DNA from: a virus | Taxonomy: Duplodnaviria > Heunggongvirae > Uroviricota > Caudoviricetes | Reading direction: 5' to 3' (one strand) | DNA: 12,575 nt | IMG/VR virus record: IMGVR_UViG_2698536677_000006 | Span: 1-12,575 of that record | Shown: piece after piece, positions 2,792-12,575 of the stretch | Numbering within the stretch: position 1 is the first letter of the stretch | Layout: each line of letters opens with the position of its first letter | Made by a program: the position numbers and the translations under genes | Notes under the pieces: generated by a model | What the model was told of the DNA's origin: nothing | The model's database searches: none | The model's input: only the letters and a program-made list of their open reading frames with translations

Positions 2792-3083
2792 TGAAGCGTT
2801 CACGCATCATGATTTCGATATCAGATGCCAGGCGATGACCACAGAACAGGTAAAGACTTCCGACAGGTTTCAGCACCCGCCAGAACTGCGCCAGACACTG
2901 GTCCAGCCACTTCAGGTAATCATCGTCGCCCTTCCACTGGTTATCCCAGCCCTCAGGCTTCACTTTAAAGTACGGCGGGTCCGTGACTATCAGGTCAACA
3001 GAATTTTCGGGTAACGACCGGATAAATTCCAGGCAGTCGGCGTTGATTAACTCACAACTGGATATTTTTACAGTATTAAGCAT
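2792..3083 (-). pseudogene. 5' fragment of a second, diverged copy of the adenine methyltransferase gene, truncated by the N gap
   Basis: ORF track 2589..3083 begins MLNTVKISSCELINADCLEFIRSLPENSVDLIVTDPPYFKV and runs into XXXX; it differs from the 1538..2596 copy at A2L, QT to RS and A to V. The part of the ORF below 2781 is out-of-frame read-through, not gene. Confidence 0.6.
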
Positions 3084-3221
3084 GGATCATTAAGCCTGTC
3101 TCTGATAGGCTCATTCTGCTTTTGCGCAAAGCAGTGGGCCTGAGGTGTGCTTGTGAACCCAACGCATGAGCAGATGGCTGGTGGGTGCCCCTAACACCCA
3201 CCAGCCGCCCATTTACCACAA

Positions 3222-3247
3222 ATAAAAAAGCCTTCACTGCGGAAGGC
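3222..3247 (-). terminator. Rho-independent terminator overlapping the 3' end of the small CDS 3234..3431
   Basis: Minus-strand RNA GCCUUC-CGCAGU-GAAGGC followed by U6-7 (plus A-run 3222-3229). The stop codon of the small CDS lies in the hairpin loop. Confidence 0.5.
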
Positions 3248-3431
3248 GTCTGTAACAACCGAACTGATAGTCTGCCAGACCCGCCATAACCAGCTGGGTC
3301 AGTATTAACTGGCAGCGTTCGCGTGAAAGGTAAGTATTCTGCGCAATCTCCCCGACTGTCGCCGGGTCGTTAACGCTTAATTCATTAAACACCACTCTGG
3401 CGGTTTCTGTCATATCCTGCTGTTTTAGCAT
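3234..3431 (-). CDS. Small conserved protein (65 aa), first ORF downstream of the Q-position gene; function unknown
   Basis: Internal ATG of ORF 3234..3518 (MLKQQDMTETARVVFNELSVNDPATVGEIAQNTYLSRERCQLILTQLVMAGLADYQFGCYRRLPQ). The same protein with only three substitutions is encoded at 6219..6416 although the two DNA copies differ, which favours real coding. Confidence 0.45.
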   Translation of the reverse strand: MLKQQDMTETARVVFNELSVNDPATVGEIAQNTYLSRERCQLILTQLVMAGLADYQFGCYRRLPQ

Positions 3432-3553
3432 GTCTTTTTCCCTTTTCCGGTTAACGTGACACACCAATAACTCTTGTCGAAAAAGCCAGCAAGCTGAAAG
3501 ACAGGTATTCACCGCCACCAGCGCGTTTACTGTACTGACGCGATTTCAGTCAT

Positions 3554-3575
3554 AAAAAACCCGCCAGGCGGCGGG
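3554..3575 (-). terminator. tR'-like intrinsic terminator downstream of the Q gene
   Basis: Minus-strand RNA CCCGCC-GCCU-GGCGGG (6-bp GC stem) followed by U6 (plus A6 at 3554-3559), about 80-100 nt after the Q stop, as expected for the lambda PR'/tR' arrangement. Confidence 0.5.
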
Positions 3576-3657
3576 GTGTAAAAAATCTTCTAACGTCAGG
3601 CATAAAACGCCCATCGTTAGAGCAAATTTACCACAGATTCGGGAAAAATCAACAACA

Positions 3658-4479
3658 CTATCGCGTTACCCTCTTTAACTGCCGCTCCGCCCATGCCTCT
3701 TCAATGTCAAACCGAACCACCAACGTATCGTAAAAGCGTTTCACTGATTTTTTCCACGTATCAAGCGTGATAGCACTCGTCACTTTGCATATGGCATTAA
3801 ATGCCTCCGTTGATGGCAGCCTTTCACAGCCACGACCACCACAACGCTGGCAATCTCTGATAACAGGCATACCACGTTTTACCGACTCTTCACGATGAAT
3901 GGCGACACCACGCCCACGGCAATCCTTACAGGCGGTGGAAACCTCACCCTTTCCGCCACACTCCGGACAGGCAACTTTTACCACCTCCCTGACTTTTTTC
4001 CATTCTTCCCAGTAAGACGGATACACGCCTTTTGTGCACTTTGCCCACACTGGTGGCTTACCATCCGGATACTGGATCTTGTTTGTAAAAACCTCGCTTT
4101 CAATAAATTTTTTTCCGTGACAGCAGGGGCACTGTTTTTTGCTCGCCGCGCTACGGGCATAATCTTCAAACGCATACGAAGCCATAATGCGCATCACTAC
4201 CGGTTTTATTTCTGCCGGAAGTTTTCTCAACGCCGCCACACGATCGCACCGACTGAGTGCATAATCTGCCAGTAATTCTGTTGCCCGCGCCCTGTCATTC
4301 ATACTGATGCCCATTTTCCCCAGGAACGCAGAAAACCCCATCTCAGCCCGATTCTGTGTCATGCCCTGCGCGGCCATCACATCAGTGATACTCAGCGCAT
4401 CTTTTGACGTTGAGGCCGATGCATCGGTCAGGCCAGGGGATTTTGGGGAGTAGTATTTCGGTAAATCTTCCAGTTTCAT
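3658..4479 (-). CDS. Late-gene antiterminator Q, lambda-Q family, with an expanded cysteine-rich domain
   Basis: 273 aa. Recalled lambda Q matches at the N-terminus (KYYSPKSP vs KFHSPKSP; TDVMAA) and C-terminus (FYDTLVV vs LYDALVV; ends VTR). Four CxxCxGxG repeats (CPCCHGKK, CPECGGKG, CKDCRGRG, CQRCGGRG). ATG overlaps the RusA stop (ATGA). Confidence 0.8.
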   Translation of the reverse strand: MKLEDLPKYYSPKSPGLTDASASTSKDALSITDVMAAQGMTQNRAEMGFSAFLGKMGISMNDRARATELLADYALSRCDRVAALRKLPAEIKPVVMRIMASYAFEDYARSAASKKQCPCCHGKKFIESEVFTNKIQYPDGKPPVWAKCTKGVYPSYWEEWKKVREVVKVACPECGGKGEVSTACKDCRGRGVAIHREESVKRGMPVIRDCQRCGGRGCERLPSTEAFNAICKVTSAITLDTWKKSVKRFYDTLVVRFDIEEAWAERQLKRVTR

Positions 4480-4856
4480 TTTTTGACCTGCTCTTCATGC
4501 ATTATGGGGTAAATCTTCACCCCCATACGTCCACCAGATACTGGCTGACCACGAACGATATTGATTTCATCAAACTGCTCATCGTCCATTAACACTCCCG
4601 CATGCGTCAGCGCATCCAGCGGTGCTTTCAGGATATTGTCCAGGTCGCGACGACGCTTATCCGGTGGCTCTGCAATCACCTTTATCGCCAGCCTTCCGGA
4701 CAGGATTAATTTCAGCCGCTGCTGGCGAACAATAAGCGCCACAGCCCGGCGATAACGCTTTCCCTCCTCCGAGATAAAATATGTGCTGCCACGGCGTCGC
4801 CAGTAAGTGTTCACCGTTGGCGGGTAAGGCAAAACAAATTCTATGCGTTCAGTCAT
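4476..4856 (-). CDS. rusA: RusA-family Holliday junction resolvase
   Basis: 126 aa. Catalytic spacing D-x-D-x3-K ... D as in RusA (RRRDLDNILKAPLD ... LMDDEQ). Directly abuts the upstream YdfU-like stop (TAAATG) and overlaps the Q start. Confidence 0.85.
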   Translation of the reverse strand: MTERIEFVLPYPPTVNTYWRRRGSTYFISEEGKRYRRAVALIVRQQRLKLILSGRLAIKVIAEPPDKRRRDLDNILKAPLDALTHAGVLMDDEQFDEINIVRGQPVSGGRMGVKIYPIMHEEQVKK

Positions 4857-5912
4857 TTATGCTTTCCACTTCAGAACACCCGAATTTCTCGCGTGCATTA
4901 AAAAACGAATCAGCAACAACAGCTGGCTGCCGTGTTTTTCTTCAAAATCTTTTACCCCGGCGTGTAGTTCGCTATGGCATTTACGGCACAGCGGAATAAC
5001 AAACAAATCATCAGCCTTTGTTCCCATCCCTCCCAGTCCATGACCAATGATGTGATGCGGATCATCTGCCTGATTGCCACACGTCATGCATTTCTGCGTT
5101 TTTACCCAACGCGTGTATACAGGCATCTCTTCCCGTTGTGATTTCTGGCGCTGGAGATACTGAGCCGGTGACTCCGGATCAACGGCAATGCTGACCACCG
5201 TCTTTTCCTGTGGCGGGTTTTGCTGGTGGGCGTGAGGCAGCGGCGCAAGATTTTTTGTGCGCTGCTTCAGTATGCTGGTGGCGGTCTGCTCTCCCGGTAC
5301 GATGTCGCTTTCACGGTACATTGAGCGGATTTTTTCCGCACGCAACCCCAGCGAACGACGTAATACCGCTTCCGGTAGCGCGTCCGCCACCTGATTGCGG
5401 ACCGCCCACCAGGATAATTCAGCCAGCGATAATTCCCGTTCCTGCGAGCCATTCATTGCATGGCGTATGACGTCAATCATCCATGCAGACAGGTTTTGGT
5501 GAGCAAGTTGCCCGAGTGATTCGGAGGTCTGGTCGCGCAGCTGGTTGTCGCAGTGCCAGCACAACACCATTGCGCCGGTACCATAACGGTGAATGACGGT
5601 TTCACTGTGGTGATAATCGCCGTGTGGCCACTGGCAGGATTTAACATGGCGCAGTAACCAGTCAGACAATGCGCCAGCGCCACCAGCAGCACGAATCACT
5701 CGTTCGTCGCTGAAAAATGGCAGTAATGATTTATCCTCCGCCAGCGGCTGGCGAACGGCAGGAACGACCCCGGACGGCAGATTACGCATGCTTTTCGGTT
5801 CCGGCTCCACCAGTACCCGGGTATTGTGGAATACCGGCATGGATTCACGGCCCGGCTTAACGATCACCAGCCCGAGTTCCGGTACCAGAACAGGTCGAAG
5901 TAATACCCGCAC
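4857..5912 (-). CDS. YdfU-like (DUF968) prophage protein with C-terminal HNH-like zinc motif
   Basis: Homologous to the 7572..8621 copy; GTG start at 5912..5910 preceded by GGAGG. C-terminal CxxC ... HH ... C..C..H..LH motif (CMTCGNQADDPHHIIGHG ... CRKCHSELH). The ORF-track extension to 6068 is a chimera across the n at 5957. Confidence 0.7.
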   Translation of the reverse strand: MRVLLRPVLVPELGLVIVKPGRESMPVFHNTRVLVEPEPKSMRNLPSGVVPAVRQPLAEDKSLLPFFSDERVIRAAGGAGALSDWLLRHVKSCQWPHGDYHHSETVIHRYGTGAMVLCWHCDNQLRDQTSESLGQLAHQNLSAWMIDVIRHAMNGSQERELSLAELSWWAVRNQVADALPEAVLRRSLGLRAEKIRSMYRESDIVPGEQTATSILKQRTKNLAPLPHAHQQNPPQEKTVVSIAVDPESPAQYLQRQKSQREEMPVYTRWVKTQKCMTCGNQADDPHHIIGHGLGGMGTKADDLFVIPLCRKCHSELHAGVKDFEEKHGSQLLLLIRFLMHARNSGVLKWKA

Positions 5913-5956
5913 GTTACCTCCAGATGCGTTGCTGGAATGTGCGGGACGGACGCGGT

Positions 5957-6068
5957 NTGGCGGGTCTGTGACTATCAGATCGACAGAGTTTTCCGGTAAG
6001 GTCTGGATAAATTCCAGGCAATCAGCGTTGATTAACTCACAACTGGATATTTTTACAGTATTAGCCAT
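5957..6068 (-). pseudogene. Orphaned 5' end (37 codons) of the adenine methyltransferase gene, joined through a single n to the YdfU-like leader
   Basis: Encodes MANTVKISSCELINADCLEFIQTLPENSVDLIVTDPP, identical to the start of the 1538..2596 gene. 5958-6068 matches 2486-2596. The join falls at a shared GGCGGG microhomology. Confidence 0.55.
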
Positions 6069-6206
6069 AGATCAATAAGCACTTCTCTGATAGGCTCATA
6101 CCGCTTTTGCGCAAAGCAGATGGGCCTGAGGTTTGCTTGTGACCCCAACGCATGAGCAGATGGCTGGCAGGTGCCGCTAACACCCACCAGCCGCCCATTA
6201 CCACAA

Positions 6207-6232
6207 ATAAAAAAGCCTTCACTGAGGAAGGC
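6207..6232 (-). terminator. Rho-independent terminator overlapping the 3' end of the small CDS 6219..6416
   Basis: GCCTTC-ACTGAG-GAAGGC hairpin plus A-run on the plus strand (U-run on the minus transcript). Confidence 0.5.
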
Positions 6233-6416
6233 GTCTGTAACAACCGAACTGATAATCTGCCAGACCCGCCATAACAAGCTGGGTCAGTATTAACTGGCAG
6301 CGTTCGCGTGAAAGATAAGTGTTCTGCGCAATTTCCTCGACGGTCGCCGGTTCGGTGACGCTTAATTCATTAAACACCACTCTGGCGGTTTCGGTCATAT
6401 CCTGCTGTTTTAGCAT
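6219..6416 (-). CDS. Small conserved protein (65 aa), second copy
   Basis: Internal ATG of ORF 6219..6539. Identical to the 3234..3431 product except ND to TE and G to E. Confidence 0.45.
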   Translation of the reverse strand: MLKQQDMTETARVVFNELSVTEPATVEEIAQNTYLSRERCQLILTQLVMAGLADYQFGCYRRLPQ

Positions 6417-6539
6417 GCCTTTTTCCCTTTTCCGGTTAACGTGACACACCAATAACTCTTGTCGAAAAAGCCAGCAAGCTGAAAGAACGGTATTAATAAC
6501 CACCAGCGAATTTATTGCGCTGCTGTATATTACGGACAC

Positions 6540-6561
6540 AAAAAAACCACCTTCCGGTGGC
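6540..6561 (-). terminator. tR'-like intrinsic terminator downstream of the Q-position gene (second module)
   Basis: Minus-strand RNA CCACC-GGAA-GGUGG followed by U8 (plus A8 at 6540-6547), about 80 nt below the stop of the 6640..7203 gene. Confidence 0.5.
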
Positions 6562-6639
6562 TTCCTTGTGCGAAAAAACTTGCATTTCGCCTCGCGATAC
6601 AGCTTTGCGAAGCTTATACGGATTGAAGCAGTTTATTGA

Positions 6640-7203
6640 TCAGTTTGCAACATTTTTCTCTGTAACAAAAGCCATGCGCATGGGGGCATATAACATAAAT
6701 TCAGATACCCCCAACCATTGATCAATTCGGCGTCTGCACGTAACCAACGACCAATCAGGATGATCTGCATTTAACCTTTCGGCCATTTTCAGTTTGCTCA
6801 TTCCCCGTCCTTCGTACCTTTGCCGGAGAACATTGATTAGCCCGGGATATTCCCCAAGCACCTCACTGATAACGCGATCAATAATCAACGCCTCTGTGTC
6901 TGTACAATGTGACAACCAGCTCTTCTGCTTTCCTCTTGTCATATCCCGAAAAAATGCCTCAAGTTCCGGTTTTTCCAGCCCGGATTTCTTCATTCTGCGT
7001 AAAACCTCATTAACTGCTGTTTTCGTCAGCTTTTTCGAAACCAGTAACCGGTTAAACATATTTCCGGATTTACCCCCACCGATATACGACCACCGCCCCC
7101 ACATCCGTAATTTCCCCTGGATCCAGACTGCTTCCAGCGTGTTCAGGCGTAAATGTTCGCCGCTTTTGCCTGTAATTTCCGGATATATCATATTTACGCT
7201 CAC
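6640..7203 (-). CDS. Q-position protein of a different sequence family (putative alternative late antiterminator)
   Basis: 187-aa ORF in the same slot as the lambda-type Q of the other module: start (GTG 7203, or ATG 7191) overlaps the RusA stop, and a tR'-like terminator follows. No sequence similarity to the 3658..4479 protein. Function inferred from position only. Confidence 0.45.
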   Translation of the reverse strand: MSVNMIYPEITGKSGEHLRLNTLEAVWIQGKLRMWGRWSYIGGGKSGNMFNRLLVSKKLTKTAVNEVLRRMKKSGLEKPELEAFFRDMTRGKQKSWLSHCTDTEALIIDRVISEVLGEYPGLINVLRQRYEGRGMSKLKMAERLNADHPDWSLVTCRRRIDQWLGVSEFMLYAPMRMAFVTEKNVAN

Positions 7204-7559
7204 TCACTCTCAATTTTGTAAATCTTCACACCCAGCCGTCCACCAGATACTGGCTGACCACGTACAATATTGATTTCATCAAACTGCTCGTCATCAATGA
7301 GCACTCCCGCATGCGTCAGCGCATCCAGCGGTGCTTTCAGAATGTTGTCCAGGTCGCGACGACGCTTATCCGGTGGCTCTGCAATCACCTTTATCGCCAG
7401 CCTTCCGGACAGGCTTAATTTCAGCCGCTGCTGGCGAACAATAAGCGCCACAGCCCGGCGATAACGCTCACCGGCTTTTGATACAAAATATGTGCTGCCA
7501 CGACGTCGCCAGTAGGTGTTCACCGTCGGCGGGTAAGGCAAAACAAACTCTATGAGCAT
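7200..7559 (-). CDS. rusA: RusA-family Holliday junction resolvase (second copy)
   Basis: 119 aa, near-identical to the 4476..4856 product; same DLDN...K...D motif. Confidence 0.85.
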   Translation of the reverse strand: MLIEFVLPYPPTVNTYWRRRGSTYFVSKAGERYRRAVALIVRQQRLKLSLSGRLAIKVIAEPPDKRRRDLDNILKAPLDALTHAGVLIDDEQFDEINIVRGQPVSGGRLGVKIYKIESE

Positions 7560-7571
7560 CAGTCACCTCTT

Positions 7572-8621
7572 TTACCCGAGCACGCCAGTCGCAAAGGCGT
7601 GATCAAGAAAACGAAAAATTAAATCAACCTGGGAACCATGCTTTTCTTCGAACGCCAGCGGATCCGCATGAAGCTCGTTGTGATGCTCCCGACACAGCGG
7701 TAGCGTGAAAATATCGTGGGATTTTGTTCCCATTCCACCCTGACCATGACCAATCAGATGATGAGGATCGTCCGCTGGCTTACCACAACACGCACACGGC
7801 TGTGTCTTTACCCAGCGTGTGTATTTCTCATTTACCCAGCGGCGACGTTTAGGTCGTTTCATGAAGGATTCCGGAGACTCCGGATCAACGGCAATGCTGA
7901 CCACCGTCTTTTCCTGTGGTGGGTTCTGTTGCTGGTGGGTGTGAGGCGGTAGCGCAATATTTTTTGTGCGCTGCTTCAGTATGCTGGTGGCGGTCTGTTC
8001 TCCCGGTATGATGTCGCTTTCACGGTATACGGAGCGGATTTTTTCCGCCGGTAATCCCAGAGAACGACGCGCTACTGCCTCAGGTAGTGCATCCACCACC
8101 TGATTGCAGGCCGCCCACCAGGATAATTCGGCCAGCGATAACTCCCTCTCCTGCGTACCGCTTATTGCGTGACCGATGACGTCAATCATCCATGCTGACA
8201 GGTTTTGATGAGCAAGTTGCTCGAGTGATTCGGATGTCTGGTCACGCAGCTGGTTGTCACAGTGCCAGCACAACACCATCGCGCCGGTACCGTAACGGTG
8301 AATGACTGTTTCGCTGTGATGATAATCGCCGTGTGGCCACTGGCAGGATTTCACGTGACGTAATAACCAGTCAGACAGTGCACCTGCACCACCTGCTGCA
8401 CGAATTACCCGCTCATCGCTGAAAAATGGTAGTAATGTTTTATCCTCAGCCAACGGCTGGCTAACGGCTGCAACGACGCCGGACGGAAGACTGCGCATGT
8501 TTTTGGGTTCCGGTTCCACCAATATTCTGCCGTTATGGAATACTGACATTGATTCACGGCCTGGCTTAACGATAACCAGACTGAGTTCCGGTACCAGAAC
8601 AGGTCGAAGTAATACCCGCAC
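7572..8621 (-). CDS. YdfU-like (DUF968) prophage protein with C-terminal HNH-like zinc motif
   Basis: 349 aa. GTG start at 8621..8619 with GGAGG 5 nt upstream, which overlaps the stop of the upstream small gene. C-terminus CACCGKPADDPHHLIGHGQGG ... CREHHNELH. Confidence 0.75.
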   Translation of the reverse strand: MRVLLRPVLVPELSLVIVKPGRESMSVFHNGRILVEPEPKNMRSLPSGVVAAVSQPLAEDKTLLPFFSDERVIRAAGGAGALSDWLLRHVKSCQWPHGDYHHSETVIHRYGTGAMVLCWHCDNQLRDQTSESLEQLAHQNLSAWMIDVIGHAISGTQERELSLAELSWWAACNQVVDALPEAVARRSLGLPAEKIRSVYRESDIIPGEQTATSILKQRTKNIALPPHTHQQQNPPQEKTVVSIAVDPESPESFMKRPKRRRWVNEKYTRWVKTQPCACCGKPADDPHHLIGHGQGGMGTKSHDIFTLPLCREHHNELHADPLAFEEKHGSQVDLIFRFLDHAFATGVLG

Positions 8622-8622
8622 G

Positions 8623-8895
8623 TTACCTCCAGATGCGTTGCTGATATGTGCGGGACGGACGCGGCGGGCGTTCGGAATAAGGGAGCCTGACGGAAATTAT
8701 CCAGTGTCGGAAGTCAGGATTGAGGCCTTTCTGAAACTGGTATCCACGTCTGCGGTAATTCTGAATCAGCCACTCGGCCTGTTCTTCAGTGCATTGGTCA
8801 TGCTGGTACCAGTCATATTTGAATGCGTGAGAGCGCCGTCCGTGTCTGCTGGCAGGGTCGGCATCAGAATTGTGGTGTTTGGTATTGTGCGCCAT
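8623..8895 (-). CDS. Small prophage protein (about 90 aa), function unknown
   Basis: Internal ATG (MAHNTKHH...) of ORF 8623..8976. The longer ORF-track start would run through the terminator at 8968-8993, so the internal start is preferred. Stop TAA lies 1 nt before the YdfU-like GTG. Confidence 0.4.
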   Translation of the reverse strand: MAHNTKHHNSDADPASRHGRRSHAFKYDWYQHDQCTEEQAEWLIQNYRRRGYQFQKGLNPDFRHWIISVRLPYSERPPRPSRTYQQRIWR

Positions 8896-8967
8896 CGGTT
8901 GTCTCTGCTGGCGCAGCAGGTGCCAGTTGTTCAGGCTGGCGTGTGGATTGTAAACCAGAATGCCAGG

Positions 8968-8993
8968 AAAAAACAAAACCCGCGAAGCGGGTT
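8968..8993 (-). terminator. Strong rho-independent terminator separating the restriction-modification island from the nin-region genes
   Basis: Minus-strand RNA AACCCGC-UUCG-GCGGGUU (7-bp stem, UUCG tetraloop) followed by UUGUUUUUU, about 75 nt downstream of the endonuclease stop. Confidence 0.65.
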
Positions 8994-9065
8994 AGTAAAA
9001 ATGTACTGAAGTCAATGACGTGCCATCACAGTTAAAATATGACAGACTCTATTTACGTAGAGATG

Positions 9066-9944
9066 TCAGACTGCAAGATCCAAGGGAAGATCAGAAATAT
9101 CCTTTAATCTTTTACCATTAACCATCACGGAAAGCATGTCAGCTGCATCGCTGAGCCCCAGTATTTCAACTGCTGATATAAGTTCATAAAGCGCAAAATG
9201 ATACACGCAATCTATATCACCAGTACCAAGAGCAATAGACGCCAGACGACTTGGAGTAGGCTCAGCAGTAACAACCATTACATGAGGGAGATTTCCCTTA
9301 CGGTTGCGAATAAGATTTAATGCCTCAGAACGAGCATTCTGGGCCCGGTCGCTTCTTATTGTCCATTTGCAGGAAATACTTGCGTGTAATATTGGTTTCC
9401 CACCATTCGAACTCCTGAGAGCTGACATGCGGGTAACAGAATCATCCACCAGTAATTCAGGACTGTTGATAACTTGATCACATTCAGGTTCTCTTTCAAC
9501 AATAATATCTGGTGAAATCGTATAATCACTCCCCAGTGCAGCAGCTAGCTGAGGATTACTTTTTGCAGCACTATCCAATGCTATAAGATGGGCATATTGT
9601 TCATATTTAGCTATCTCTAATCTGTTTCTACCAGAAACCTGATGTACATTCCATTTTCCAGGGCGTAAGTGGCTGAGTTTAAAAAAGGTTTTTTCTATAA
9701 ACTCTGCGCAGATACTCTCAAACTGATTACCAGATGTTTGCCCTGCAACACGTTCACCAATCGTTTCAGCCTGCAAGAAGCGAGCAATTTCTCTTGCTAT
9801 AGCTTTACTGTTTTTGTTACTGCTATCTGCGTTACTAACAACTCCGGCAGTATTAATTGTGAGCGTATTCAGTAACAATTGGGCATGAAACTCCTTTCTG
9901 GCTTCAGCAAAACCAACTATGCTGTCAACCAAATCTCCATTCAT
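9066..9944 (-). CDS. Type II restriction endonuclease, NgoMIV/Cfr10I/Bse634I-like (predicted CCGG-core specificity)
   Basis: 292 aa from ATG 9944 (MNGDLV...), with AGGAAA Shine-Dalgarno and only 13 nt after the methyltransferase stop. Active-site pattern SPD(146) ... SCK(193) ... E(207): D-to-K 47 and K-to-E 14 residues, the spacing recalled for NgoMIV D140/K187/E201. Recognition-type motif K-x3-R-x-D-R (KWTIRSDR). Confidence 0.6.
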   Translation of the reverse strand: MNGDLVDSIVGFAEARKEFHAQLLLNTLTINTAGVVSNADSSNKNSKAIAREIARFLQAETIGERVAGQTSGNQFESICAEFIEKTFFKLSHLRPGKWNVHQVSGRNRLEIAKYEQYAHLIALDSAAKSNPQLAAALGSDYTISPDIIVEREPECDQVINSPELLVDDSVTRMSALRSSNGGKPILHASISCKWTIRSDRAQNARSEALNLIRNRKGNLPHVMVVTAEPTPSRLASIALGTGDIDCVYHFALYELISAVEILGLSDAADMLSVMVNGKRLKDISDLPLDLAV

Positions 9945-9957
9945 TTCTGGATTTCCT

Positions 9958-11082
9958 TCAGGCTGCTTGACTATTCTTACTGATGTTATTCTTATACCGT
10001 CCCTGCAAAACTCCATACACATATTGTGCGATTTTTGCCGCAAATAGCGGTGGAACAGCATTCCCGATCTGCTTTGCAATCTCAGTTTTTGAACCGGTAA
10101 AAATGAAATTATCAGGAAAAGACATTAATCTCGCTGCCTCACGATGAGTTATTGGCCGATCCTCTTCCGGATGTAAATATCGCCCTTTCTCCGGTTTGAA
10201 AAACTCAGTACGAATCGTTACTGAAGGTTTGTCCCACCACAGACGTCCAAACAAATCGGTCCCTCCAGATTTCTTTTTTAGCCAGCACGCCGGGGTTATA
10301 TCAGGTCTTTTTTTCTGTAAATCGAAACGGTTACCTCCTGGTGGAACCGCTTTATATCGCTCCAGAGAAACAGGAGTGGGATTACGCCCAAAATGTAAGT
10401 TCAGCGGAGGAAGTTCATTACGAATATCAGTTCCAACAGGAGCAGGTAAGTCACCAATTGCATCACGCGTACAGACCCATTCAGGCAAAGCGACATCCTT
10501 ATCAGGGGAACGATGCGTTGGTGCTGGCGGGAACGCCGGAATACTATGCACATCGAAGAGTTCTCGTTTGATACCGATTGCTATCGTTCGTTTTCTTGTC
10601 TGAGGTACTCCATAGTCAGCAGTATTCAACACCATTGGATTAAGCAGAATAAAGCCCATGGATTTCGCTCTAAACGTAATGTCCGCAAACTCATCGCTTA
10701 TCAGCAATCCGGGGACATTTTCCATGACGAACATACAAGCCCTTGAACGCTCAATGACATCCATATAAGGCTCCCACAATGCTCTTCGGTGATCACCATA
10801 ACGATTCTTATTCAATAAACTGAATCCCTGACACGGGGGGCCACCTATGACCACATCAGCCTCAGGAACAGTATTGCTGGATGCCCACTCCTCAATATTT
10901 GCCTGAACTCCATGCAAACCAAAATTGGCATTGTAGGTATTTATAGCTGCAGCATTATTATCAATAGCAAGGATACTTTCAAAGTAGTCAGACATCTCTC
11001 CATGAAGAAAACCATAAGATAATCCACCTGCCCCACAAAAGAGGTCTATCACTCTGAATTTATTTAATTCTTTCATCCGCAT
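9958..11082 (-). CDS. DNA cytosine-5 methyltransferase (Type II restriction-modification methylase)
   Basis: 374 aa with the canonical m5C motifs in order: I DLFCGAGGLSYGF, IV GGPPCQGFS, VI ENVPGL, VIII QTRKR, X GNAVPP. GAGG Shine-Dalgarno before the start. Confidence 0.9.
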   Translation of the reverse strand: MRMKELNKFRVIDLFCGAGGLSYGFLHGEMSDYFESILAIDNNAAAINTYNANFGLHGVQANIEEWASSNTVPEADVVIGGPPCQGFSLLNKNRYGDHRRALWEPYMDVIERSRACMFVMENVPGLLISDEFADITFRAKSMGFILLNPMVLNTADYGVPQTRKRTIAIGIKRELFDVHSIPAFPPAPTHRSPDKDVALPEWVCTRDAIGDLPAPVGTDIRNELPPLNLHFGRNPTPVSLERYKAVPPGGNRFDLQKKRPDITPACWLKKKSGGTDLFGRLWWDKPSVTIRTEFFKPEKGRYLHPEEDRPITHREAARLMSFPDNFIFTGSKTEIAKQIGNAVPPLFAAKIAQYVYGVLQGRYKNNISKNSQAA

Positions 11083-11165
11083 CCATATGCCTCAGATTAA
11101 TGTTGAGCGTCTTACAGGACGCGTAATGTTAACTGGGGCTTTCTCTATCTGCCTTTTGGTGTTCA

Positions 11166-11190
11166 TGCCTGAGGCAGACAGCCTCAGGCA
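11166..11190. promoter_or_regulatory. Perfect 9-bp inverted repeat (TGCCTGAGG-n7-CCTCAGGCA) upstream of the methyltransferase gene; candidate operator or RNA hairpin
   Basis: Read directly from the sequence. The arm sequence TGCCTCAG recurs at 11094-11101, overlapping the methyltransferase ribosome-binding site. Confidence 0.3.
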
Positions 11191-11260
11191 CCCGCAGCAA
11201 TTCTACTTAACTCACGTCACCTCGCCAATATGAAATCAATCAGAAAGGTGATCCATAAAA

Positions 11261-11947
11261 TCACTCCTTCTCTTCTTTTCCGTAGTGGAGTTGGCCAATT
11301 TTGATAAGAGGGCGTCCCTGAGATTTGCGGTGTAGATTGGTATCGCGCAGAGAATACACACAGCCACAATATTCCTGCTGATAGAATTTTTCGCGCTTGC
11401 TGATTTCAATCATACGGGACGAGCCGCCCTGCTTGCGCCAGTTATAATCCCAGTACACCATACCCGGATAATGCGCAACAGCTCGCCGCCCACACTCGTT
11501 AACCTGCTGCATATTTTTCCAGCGTGAAATGCCCAGTGAACTACTGATCACACTGAAACCATTTTCAGCAGCGTACAACGCTGTCCGCTCAAAACGCATG
11601 TCAAAACACATGGTACAACGGATCCCCCTCTCAGGCTCCCATTCCATTCCTTTGGCACGTTCAAACCAGTTGTCGGTGTCGTAATCAGCATCGATAAACG
11701 GCACGCCGTGTTGTTCAGCAAAGCGAATATTTTCATCCTTACGAATTAAATACTCTTTCTGAGGATGAATGTTCGGGTTGTAGAAAAAGATGGTGTAGTC
11801 GATTCCCGAGGCCTGAAGCGCCTCCATCACTTCACCGGAACATGGAGCACAGCAAGAGTGCAGTAGTAGTTTGTTTGCCCCGTTTGGAAGCTCCAATTTA
11901 GGCCGTTTGAAATCAGCAATAGTCATAAATATTTTTATTGGGGTCAT
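11261..11947 (-). CDS. DUF208 / QueH-like protein (putative cobalamin-independent epoxyqueuosine reductase homolog)
   Basis: 228-aa ORF with the N-terminal [11 protein letters not shown] signature recalled for QueH/DUF208 and further conserved Cys residues (CTMCFD, YCGC). Start may be ATG 11947 or 11926; neither has a clear Shine-Dalgarno. Confidence 0.5.
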
Positions 11948-12100
11948 GAAAATAGCACAGAGTGTAGCATCAGAGCAGGGCTATCGGGAATATATGTCTA
12001 AATCTGGTAATATCTGGTTTTGACGCAAAGCGGACAACCACGCTGGCTCTACCCTGCGCCATGAAAATGTCAATTCACATCTGAACTAATGCTCTTTAAT

Positions 12101-12526
12101 CTAGTAACGTCTAAAATATCTAACATTTCCTTGATAAAATGCCAGTACACGCTGCATAGCTTCGCTCTTCCGGCACTCGCGACAGATTATATTCAGGCGC
12201 CTGTCGTAGCGGCGTATTTCGCCGTCTGGTAACGACCAGATAAGGTCCGGATCAACCACTGCAGGTTTCTTCACCTTTGCCCTTGAGAGTTTTTTGCGAG
12301 CATTTTGCCAGTCCTTACGCGCCTGTTCAGACGGGAATAACCCGTAACCAGAGTTGTATACATCGCCACTGGCAACCAGCTCTCTGGCGAGAACACTCAT
12401 CAGATATCTTGTCGCACCTGTCCTGGCTTCCAGTTGCCGCAACGTCTCGCGACCGCTCAGACGTACAAGTTCAACAACCTGCCCTTTAATTTTTTCCCGC
12501 TCTTCTTGTGTAAATACTTTTGCCAT
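12101..12526 (-). CDS. Hypothetical basic protein (141 aa), possible DNA-binding protein
   Basis: ORF 12101..12541; the first ATG at 12526 (MAKVFTQEEREK...) has GGAGG 5 nt upstream, whereas the ORF-track start is a TTG. Lys/Arg-rich centre (ARKKLSRAKVKKP) and a single CRECRK. No family recognised. Confidence 0.5.
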   Translation of the reverse strand: MAKVFTQEEREKIKGQVVELVRLSGRETLRQLEARTGATRYLMSVLARELVASGDVYNSGYGLFPSEQARKDWQNARKKLSRAKVKKPAVVDPDLIWSLPDGEIRRYDRRLNIICRECRKSEAMQRVLAFYQGNVRYFRRY

Positions 12527-12575
12527 AAGCGCCTCCGGCAATCACTTTTCCGATACAACACGGCGGGAAGAATCA

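Follow-up and report, generated by a model that had tools for sequence, protein, structure and literature searches.

Locus make-up and prophage setting

An uninterrupted open reading frame of 228 codons, encoding the motif HSCCAPCS, occupies 11261..11947 on the minus strand of the window (the whole stretch of 12,575 nucleotides that was analysed, from IMG/VR record IMGVR_UViG_2698536677_000006). The 1-kb region of this gene, queH, is 100% identical to several E. coli chromosomes, including those of O39:NM F8704-2 and E110019, and the window segment that holds it (5958-12575) is colinear at 98.3% with the E. coli O39:NM chromosome. In the annotated prophage locus, where all genes lie on the same strand, QueH is preceded by repressor/Cro-like regulators, YdaT, a replication organiser, a DnaC-like ATPase, DUF1627 and DUF977. 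It is followed by a C5 methylase, an NgoMIV-family endonuclease, a hypothetical protein, DUF968, RusA and DUF1133 (Q-like), beyond which lie a DNA methyltransferase, tRNA genes, a SASA esterase and a holin. The locus is the early-right region of a lambdoid, Stx-phage-like prophage, and in all five contexts examined queH was found in the early-right region of a Qin/lambdoid prophage. The prophage setting given in the original prediction is borne out by the DUF977/Ren-like, DUF968 and RusA genes, the Q-type antiterminator (DUF1133), the phage tRNAs and the DNA methyltransferase.

In each prophage context that was examined, as in phage HannyBb, the gene next to queH on its upstream side encodes a DUF977/Ren-like exclusion protein (in the window at 12101..12541, minus strand; Pfam DUF977, 97.4 bits; PHROG phrog_142). 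A conserved non-coding leader (11927..12045, minus strand) moves with queH: about 100 nt upstream of the gene are alike in the window and in the E. coli B and HannyBb alleles, and the sequence further upstream differs. Within the leader, TGcTACACT at 11969-11961 reads as a candidate extended -10 promoter; it has no -35 element, and a sigma-70 consensus scan upstream of queH called no promoter. A promoter and terminator scan gave nothing above shuffled expectation, no clear Shine-Dalgarno sequence was seen before either queH ATG, and an Rfam scan returned no preQ1 or other riboswitch near queH. Induction should lead to transcription of queH, given its place in the early-right operon; its expression in a lysogen is plausible but unproven.

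Downstream of queH, a 2.1-kb restriction-modification cassette (8995..11088, minus strand) replaces hokD. It holds a C5 cytosine methylase gene (9958-11082, minus strand; Pfam DNA_methylase, 184.6 bits) and an NgoMIV-family endonuclease gene (9066-9944, minus strand; 879 nt from the PGAP start; Pfam NgoMIV_restric, 422.3 bits), so the restriction-modification genes originally reported to adjoin queH are a real pair. The longest open reading frames of the endonuclease (9066-10079) and the methylase (9958-11082) overlap by about 120 nt; with the PGAP endonuclease start, 13 nt separate the two genes. GC content drops to 0.40-0.44 across the cassette. Homology to hokD-type prophages ends at 11089 and resumes at 8994, and in a direct comparison window positions 8995-11088 stand in place of a 287-bp hokD segment. 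Between queH and the cassette, directly downstream of queH, lies a 5' remnant of hok/sok (hokD; 11089..11258, minus strand), with an Rfam sok match (RF01794, 61 bits against a gathering score of 59) at 11013-11193 on the minus strand. This stretch of about 170 nt was found in 3947 of the 5426 complete E. coli genomes, many more than have queH and irrespective of its presence, at up to seven places per genome; it is a widely shared lambdoid/Rac/Qin intergenic element, presumably the hok/sok leader. The common arrangement is that in which hokD follows queH, as in strain 4/4, E. coli B and phage HannyBb.

The window as a whole contains two runs of N, at 2781-2791 (11 bases) and 5957 (1 base), and is made up of three segments (1-2780, 2792-5956 and 5958-12575), each from the Q region of a different lambdoid prophage. 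Both runs fall inside three partial copies of one conserved DNA-methyltransferase N-terminus (MANTVKISSCELINADCLEF...), and the three-segment structure looks like the product of scaffold joins across repeated prophage DNA, not a real tandem arrangement. The first segment carries, all on the minus strand, a match to the sRNA family STnc100 (323-495; Rfam 104.7 bits against a gathering score of 47), an adjoining open reading frame with a TerB domain (664-1167), and two phage tRNA genes (1265-1341 and 1422-1497), a tRNA-Arg (TCT) and a tRNA with a CAT anticodon. The latter is Met according to ARAGORN, and PGAP labels the equivalent in related prophages tRNA-Ile; neither window tRNA is a queuosine substrate.

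Family membership, start codon and active site

Pfam profile PF02677 (QueH, formerly DUF208; cut-off 23.5 bits) matches the window protein at 221.5 bits (E 1.1e-65), covering profile positions 1-174 of 175. The crystallised T. maritima QueH (entries 7lc5/7lc7) was also matched, residues 27-203 of the window protein aligning with 4-178 of chain 7lc5_A at E 7.8e-22. A search of the NCBIfam profiles with the window QueH gave no match; as the Pfam and PDB matches are both strong, this was read as a missing QueH model and not as counter-evidence. The full-length Pfam match and the match to 7lc5 establish that the QueH gene is a real observation. The assignment to the QueH family that had been made from HSCCAPCS, with a profile search against DUF208/QueH as its proposed check, is upheld by these matches and by the retained cysteines described below. 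The gene is already known to annotation, since RefSeq names WP_000150294.1 "epoxyqueuosine reductase QueH".

The maximal open reading frame reaches the ATG at 11947, but translation probably starts at the second ATG (11926). The coding sequence is then 11261..11926 (minus strand), and its 221-aa product is identical to WP_000150294.1. This start is favoured because RefSeq/PGAP begins WP_000150294.1 there, because the alignment of homologues from other genera with the window QueH also begins there, and because the seven codons 5' of the ATG at 11926 show 5 changes between two prophage alleles, 4 of them non-synonymous, in contrast to the strongly constrained remainder of the gene.

A HMMER search of 1.84 billion representative proteins returned 2524 QueH relatives at E <= 1e-10. 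Among the best 150 of these (50%-identity representatives), the motif CC[AGS]Px was found in 114, of which 104 have the form CCAPC; CCAPD, the form of T. maritima QueH, occurred in only 3. The reading of CCAPC as a variant of the T. maritima motif was rejected: CCAPC is the majority form and thus the family norm, and the difference is not a real departure.

The cysteine pattern of the QueH family, CCxP[C/D] ... CxxC ... CxC, is present in the window protein, which keeps all seven family cysteines (C25, C26, C29, C104, C107, C187 and C189 in 221-aa numbering). In an alignment of 46 QueH sequences, six of these columns are invariant and that of C29 is Cys in 45; T. maritima QueH has six cysteines, which align with C25, C26, C104, C107, C187 and C189, and its D13 aligns with C29. 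The other invariant residues of the alignment (N52, Y59, R62, E99, R103, K137 and Q184) are likewise kept. The likeness to the QueH family (COG1636; solved structure T. maritima 7LC5) extends over the full profile, the length class, the conserved cysteines and the invariant residues, the motif being CCAPC where the crystallised enzyme has CCAPD. Li et al. are said to have found in 2021 that the QueH cysteines are the ligands of a [4Fe-4S] cluster and of a single iron next to it. The sequence suggests no loss or change of QueH function.

Distribution, origin and selection

The queH coding sequence was found in 995 of 5426 complete E. coli genomes (about 18%), 985 of them with at least 80% of the open reading frame covered; about 82% of the genomes are without it. 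Carriers mostly have one copy, with a maximum of two, and every E. coli record among the matches listed bears the PGAP name "epoxyqueuosine reductase QueH". They include STEC strains of E. coli O157:H7, O111 and O103, as well as E. coli B, REL606, ATCC 11303, E. coli C and ATCC 8739, but not K-12. In E. coli B the gene sits in a defective Qin-like prophage, and the REL606 allele is 100% identical to that of E. coli B. When compared with E. coli B, BL21(DE3) has a clean 1,361-bp deletion in the Qin-like prophage, with 100% identical flanks, through which it lacks queH together with a methyltransferase remnant and the 3' end of DUF977 (6704-8064 of the retrieved E. coli B locus, against about 1550 of the BL21(DE3) locus).

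Among isolated phages, a copy with 96.8% identity occupies the equivalent place (5980-6666 of the retrieved locus) in the temperate Escherichia phage HannyBb, where it is annotated as hypothetical, and a nucleotide search of isolated phage genomes found no queH besides that of HannyBb. A protein search of isolated phages added 24 weaker records. Two of these, "Acinetobacter phage" records of 330-380 kb with 79% identity, are suspected to be bacterial, and the other 22, with at most 52% identity, are mostly short unannotated faecal contigs; none was counted as a queH phage. In IMG/VR, at least 189 viral contigs encode close QueH relatives, and the best 80 loci are all 100% identical. The PHROG family phrog_3217 matches the window QueH at 459.7 bits and is labelled "unknown function". 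Given the RefSeq annotation, the 995 E. coli genomes and the IMG/VR contigs, the original description of a prophage QueH as unexpected was overstated. A survey by Hutinet et al. (2019) reported no QueA, QueG or QueH homologue among the viruses analysed (PMC6884629). Queries for the E. coli prophage gene (QueH, DUF208 or epoxyqueuosine reductase with phage; COG1636; the RefSeq accessions) found no account of it in the searchable literature, within which it is thus named in genome annotation and undiscussed.

The window QueH is 80-92% identical to the chromosomal QueH proteins of Enterobacter, Kluyvera, Erwinia, Providencia and Photorhabdus. Its closest relatives outside Escherichia are those of Scandinavium (92%), Kluyvera (91%) and Enterobacter (88-90%), and many QueH proteins of Erwiniaceae, Pectobacteriaceae, Yersiniaceae and Morganellaceae show 80-87% identity. 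In contrast to the window gene, with its place in a lambdoid prophage early-right region, these chromosomal genes, in the contexts examined, occupy housekeeping sites: between tmcA and purC in Providencia, between purL and glrK/glrR/glnB in Erwinia, beside rluE-icd in Enterobacter and among metabolic genes in Scandinavium. Among 80 species representatives, phage markers around queH were found in Escherichia albertii only. Since queH outside Escherichia lies in ordinary chromosomal neighbourhoods, the prophage gene is most simply a captured host gene, probably taken from an Enterobacterales chromosome by a lambdoid (Qin-like, often Stx-phage-like) prophage lineage.

Conservation of QueH across Proteobacteria is unusually strong: copies from Sphingomonas, Stenotrophomonas, Pseudomonas and Neisseriaceae still share 75-81% identity with the prophage protein of E. 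coli. The titles of some records (Bacillus subtilis, Avacidaminococcus) suggest that the assemblies are contaminated or mislabelled. In some Erwinia/Pantoea-like chromosomes queH lies beside dcm-vsr (retrieved loci L013, at 3893-6663, L102, L106 and L108), a second, independent adjacency to a C5 methylase that is probably coincidental.

Comparison of the window gene with the E. coli B and HannyBb alleles gave 31-33 synonymous and 7-8.5 non-synonymous differences, with dS of about 0.27-0.29 and dN of about 0.013-0.016. The resulting dN/dS is 0.06 in the comparison with E. coli B and 0.05 in that with HannyBb. QueH is under strong purifying selection within prophages, defective ones included.

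Predicted role in queuosine synthesis and competing explanations

De novo synthesis of B12 is beyond E. coli, and Frey et al. reportedly found in 1988 that the reduction of epoxyqueuosine (oQ) to queuosine (Q) in E. coli tRNA is cobamide-dependent. We know of no growth phenotype that separates oQ from Q in E. coli and, to our knowledge, no decoding difference between the two is known. The chromosomal queG gene, located beside nnr-tsaE-amiB-mutL-miaA-hfq, was present at 80% coverage or more in all 5426 complete E. coli genomes, as expected from the original statement that E. coli hosts use QueG; every queH carrier therefore also has queG, and QueH is a second reductase. The two genes differ in that queG is core and queH accessory (5426 and 995 of the 5426 genomes, respectively). 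The full Q pathway has E. coli as its model organism (PMC5372724). QueG is described as cobamide-dependent and QueH as its cobalamin-independent, non-orthologous replacement (PMC5615194, PMC5372724, PMC6461909). QueG (yjeS in E. coli; cobalamin and Fe-S) carries out the reaction predicted for QueH, oQ34 to Q34 in tRNA, but its fold and cofactor are unrelated to those of QueH and it needs a corrinoid (PMC5615194, PMC6461909).

From its sequence, the prophage gene probably encodes a catalytically competent QueH that would let the lysogen or the induced cell convert oQ to Q without cobalamin. As an iron-sulfur reductase, QueH would act on oQ at position 34 of tRNA-Asp, -Asn, -His and -Tyr. Because QueG needs a corrinoid that E. 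coli cannot make, the prophage enzyme would finish Q without B12, and the beneficiary would be the lysogen, or the infected or induced cell, when B12 is absent. Completion of queuosine without B12 was also the role first proposed for the gene, and it is judged the most reasonable predicted function. Whether QueH is expressed in lysogens, with about one in six E. coli strains being cobalamin-independent for queuosine as a result, is an evenly balanced question. Against this role stand the loss of queH from BL21(DE3), at no obvious cost, and its absence from about 82% of complete E. coli genomes.

In its genomic position, queH would be early-right cargo, placed between the replication and Ren-like genes and a slot that holds either hok/sok or a restriction-modification pair. 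It has the features of a moron, being located in a prophage, dispensable for the phage, variably present and under selection. Other lambdoid morons (the ileZ-argN-argO tRNA genes, hok/sok, and restriction-modification genes in the nin-like region) are likewise non-essential cargo between the replication genes and Q, and their presence also varies among otherwise similar prophages; queH differs from them in encoding an enzyme that belongs specifically to the queuosine branch of tRNA modification.

It is possible, though rather doubtful, that QueH serves the phage, being transcribed from the early-right unit only after induction or infection and silent in the lysogen. On this view it would raise Q and so improve the translation of those phage genes in which codons for Asn, Asp, His and Tyr are frequent. 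The strand of queH and its position, between the replication genes with DUF977 and the group of DUF968, RusA and Q, place it inside the early-right transcription unit; the failure of the consensus scan to call an upstream promoter is in keeping with this, as are the rare-codon tRNA genes of the same prophages, which make translation tuning a theme. According to a 2026 preprint, Q rises at the expense of oQ when phages infect Shewanella, through induction of queG (10.64898/2026.03.05.709803), which makes it plausible that a phage gene would target the oQ-to-Q step. Against transcription from the early-right unit alone, the conserved 100-nt leader with its possible extended -10 element moves with queH, and the gene is under purifying selection in defective remnants such as the Qin prophage of E. 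coli B, in which the tail-tip gene is truncated and interrupted by IS3, the DUF968 gene is also truncated and the antitermination-dependent late region is not intact. The retention of queH under selection in such defective prophages argues for a benefit to the host. Service to the phage is compatible with service to the lysogen, and the two are not exclusive. That queH is instead a hitchhiking passenger, carried with the prophage backbone and having no current function, is unlikely. Its dispensability, its absence from most genomes, its clean deletion in BL21(DE3) and its redundancy with the universal queG would fit such a passenger, but a dN/dS of 0.05-0.06 across alleles at a dS of about 0.28, a reading frame covered to at least 80% in 985 genomes and the retention of all catalytic-site residues would not. 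Still less likely is a neofunctionalised QueH, with another substrate or a part in phage-host conflict such as the evasion of an anticodon nuclease or colicin. The gene does adjoin a slot that gathers addiction and defence modules (hok/sok or restriction-modification); its divergence, however, is not accelerated, the prophage protein being 83-86% identical to housekeeping QueH proteins that are 82-83% identical among themselves, and no active-site change was seen in the 46-sequence alignment.

The original prediction had also offered a link between QueH and the neighbouring methylase in a new 7-deazaguanine-type DNA modification, a reading that now appears extremely improbable. What speaks for it is the adjacency in the window and, as a curiosity, the dcm-vsr genes beside queH in some Erwinia and Pantoea chromosomes. 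The pair is not co-inherited with queH: a query spanning the restriction-modification pair and queH was covered to at least 80% in 57 genomes, against 985 for queH, and in E. coli genomes beyond those 57 the homology to this query ends at 11089. In IMG/VR, 72 loci combine an identical QueH with sufficient downstream sequence; hokD is present in 53 of them, the restriction-modification pair in 19 and both in none, so that the co-occurrence first suggested as a check speaks against a joint function. This exchange, of hokD for a discrete cassette of lower GC content, indicates that the adjacency of queH and the methylase is a cassette swap at an addiction/defence hotspot and not a functional pairing. 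The methylase itself is a C5 enzyme of ordinary type whose partner is an NgoMIV-type endonuclease. No DpdA/TGT-family transglycosylase was found among the larger open reading frames of the window (Pfam) or in the annotated 25-kb segment of the matching prophage, and the preQ0 genes folE, queD, queE and queC were absent from both, which leaves the DNA-modification idea unsupported. In the phage survey of Hutinet et al., deazaguanines in DNA are tied to DpdA and preQ0 genes, not to QueH (PMC6884629). The likeness of queH to such Dpd-type systems (DpdA with FolE/QueD/QueE/QueC, as in phage 9g) is one of deazaguanine chemistry only; they insert the base into DNA, whereas QueH acts after the base has been inserted into tRNA.

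The corrected reading is that queH belongs neither with its restriction-modification neighbour nor with DNA deazaguanine modification. For annotation there is a gap to close, as phrog_3217 and the HannyBb gene are labelled unknown or hypothetical although they represent a full-length QueH. If the prophage gene is expressed in lysogens and does complete queuosine there without cobalamin, its product would be the first documented phage-carried enzyme of tRNA modification that is specific to the queuosine branch, and a phage gene would act on the oQ-to-Q step, which is reported to be regulated during phage infection (10.64898/2026.03.05.709803). The practical value is modest, and the relevance is to studies of tRNA modification, to codon-dependent translation and to comparisons of B, C, K-12 and BL21 strains, for which REL606 and BL21(DE3) form a convenient natural pair with queH present and deleted, respectively. 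Common E. coli lineages would, on the same condition, differ in whether their tRNAs carry Q or oQ when B12 is absent.
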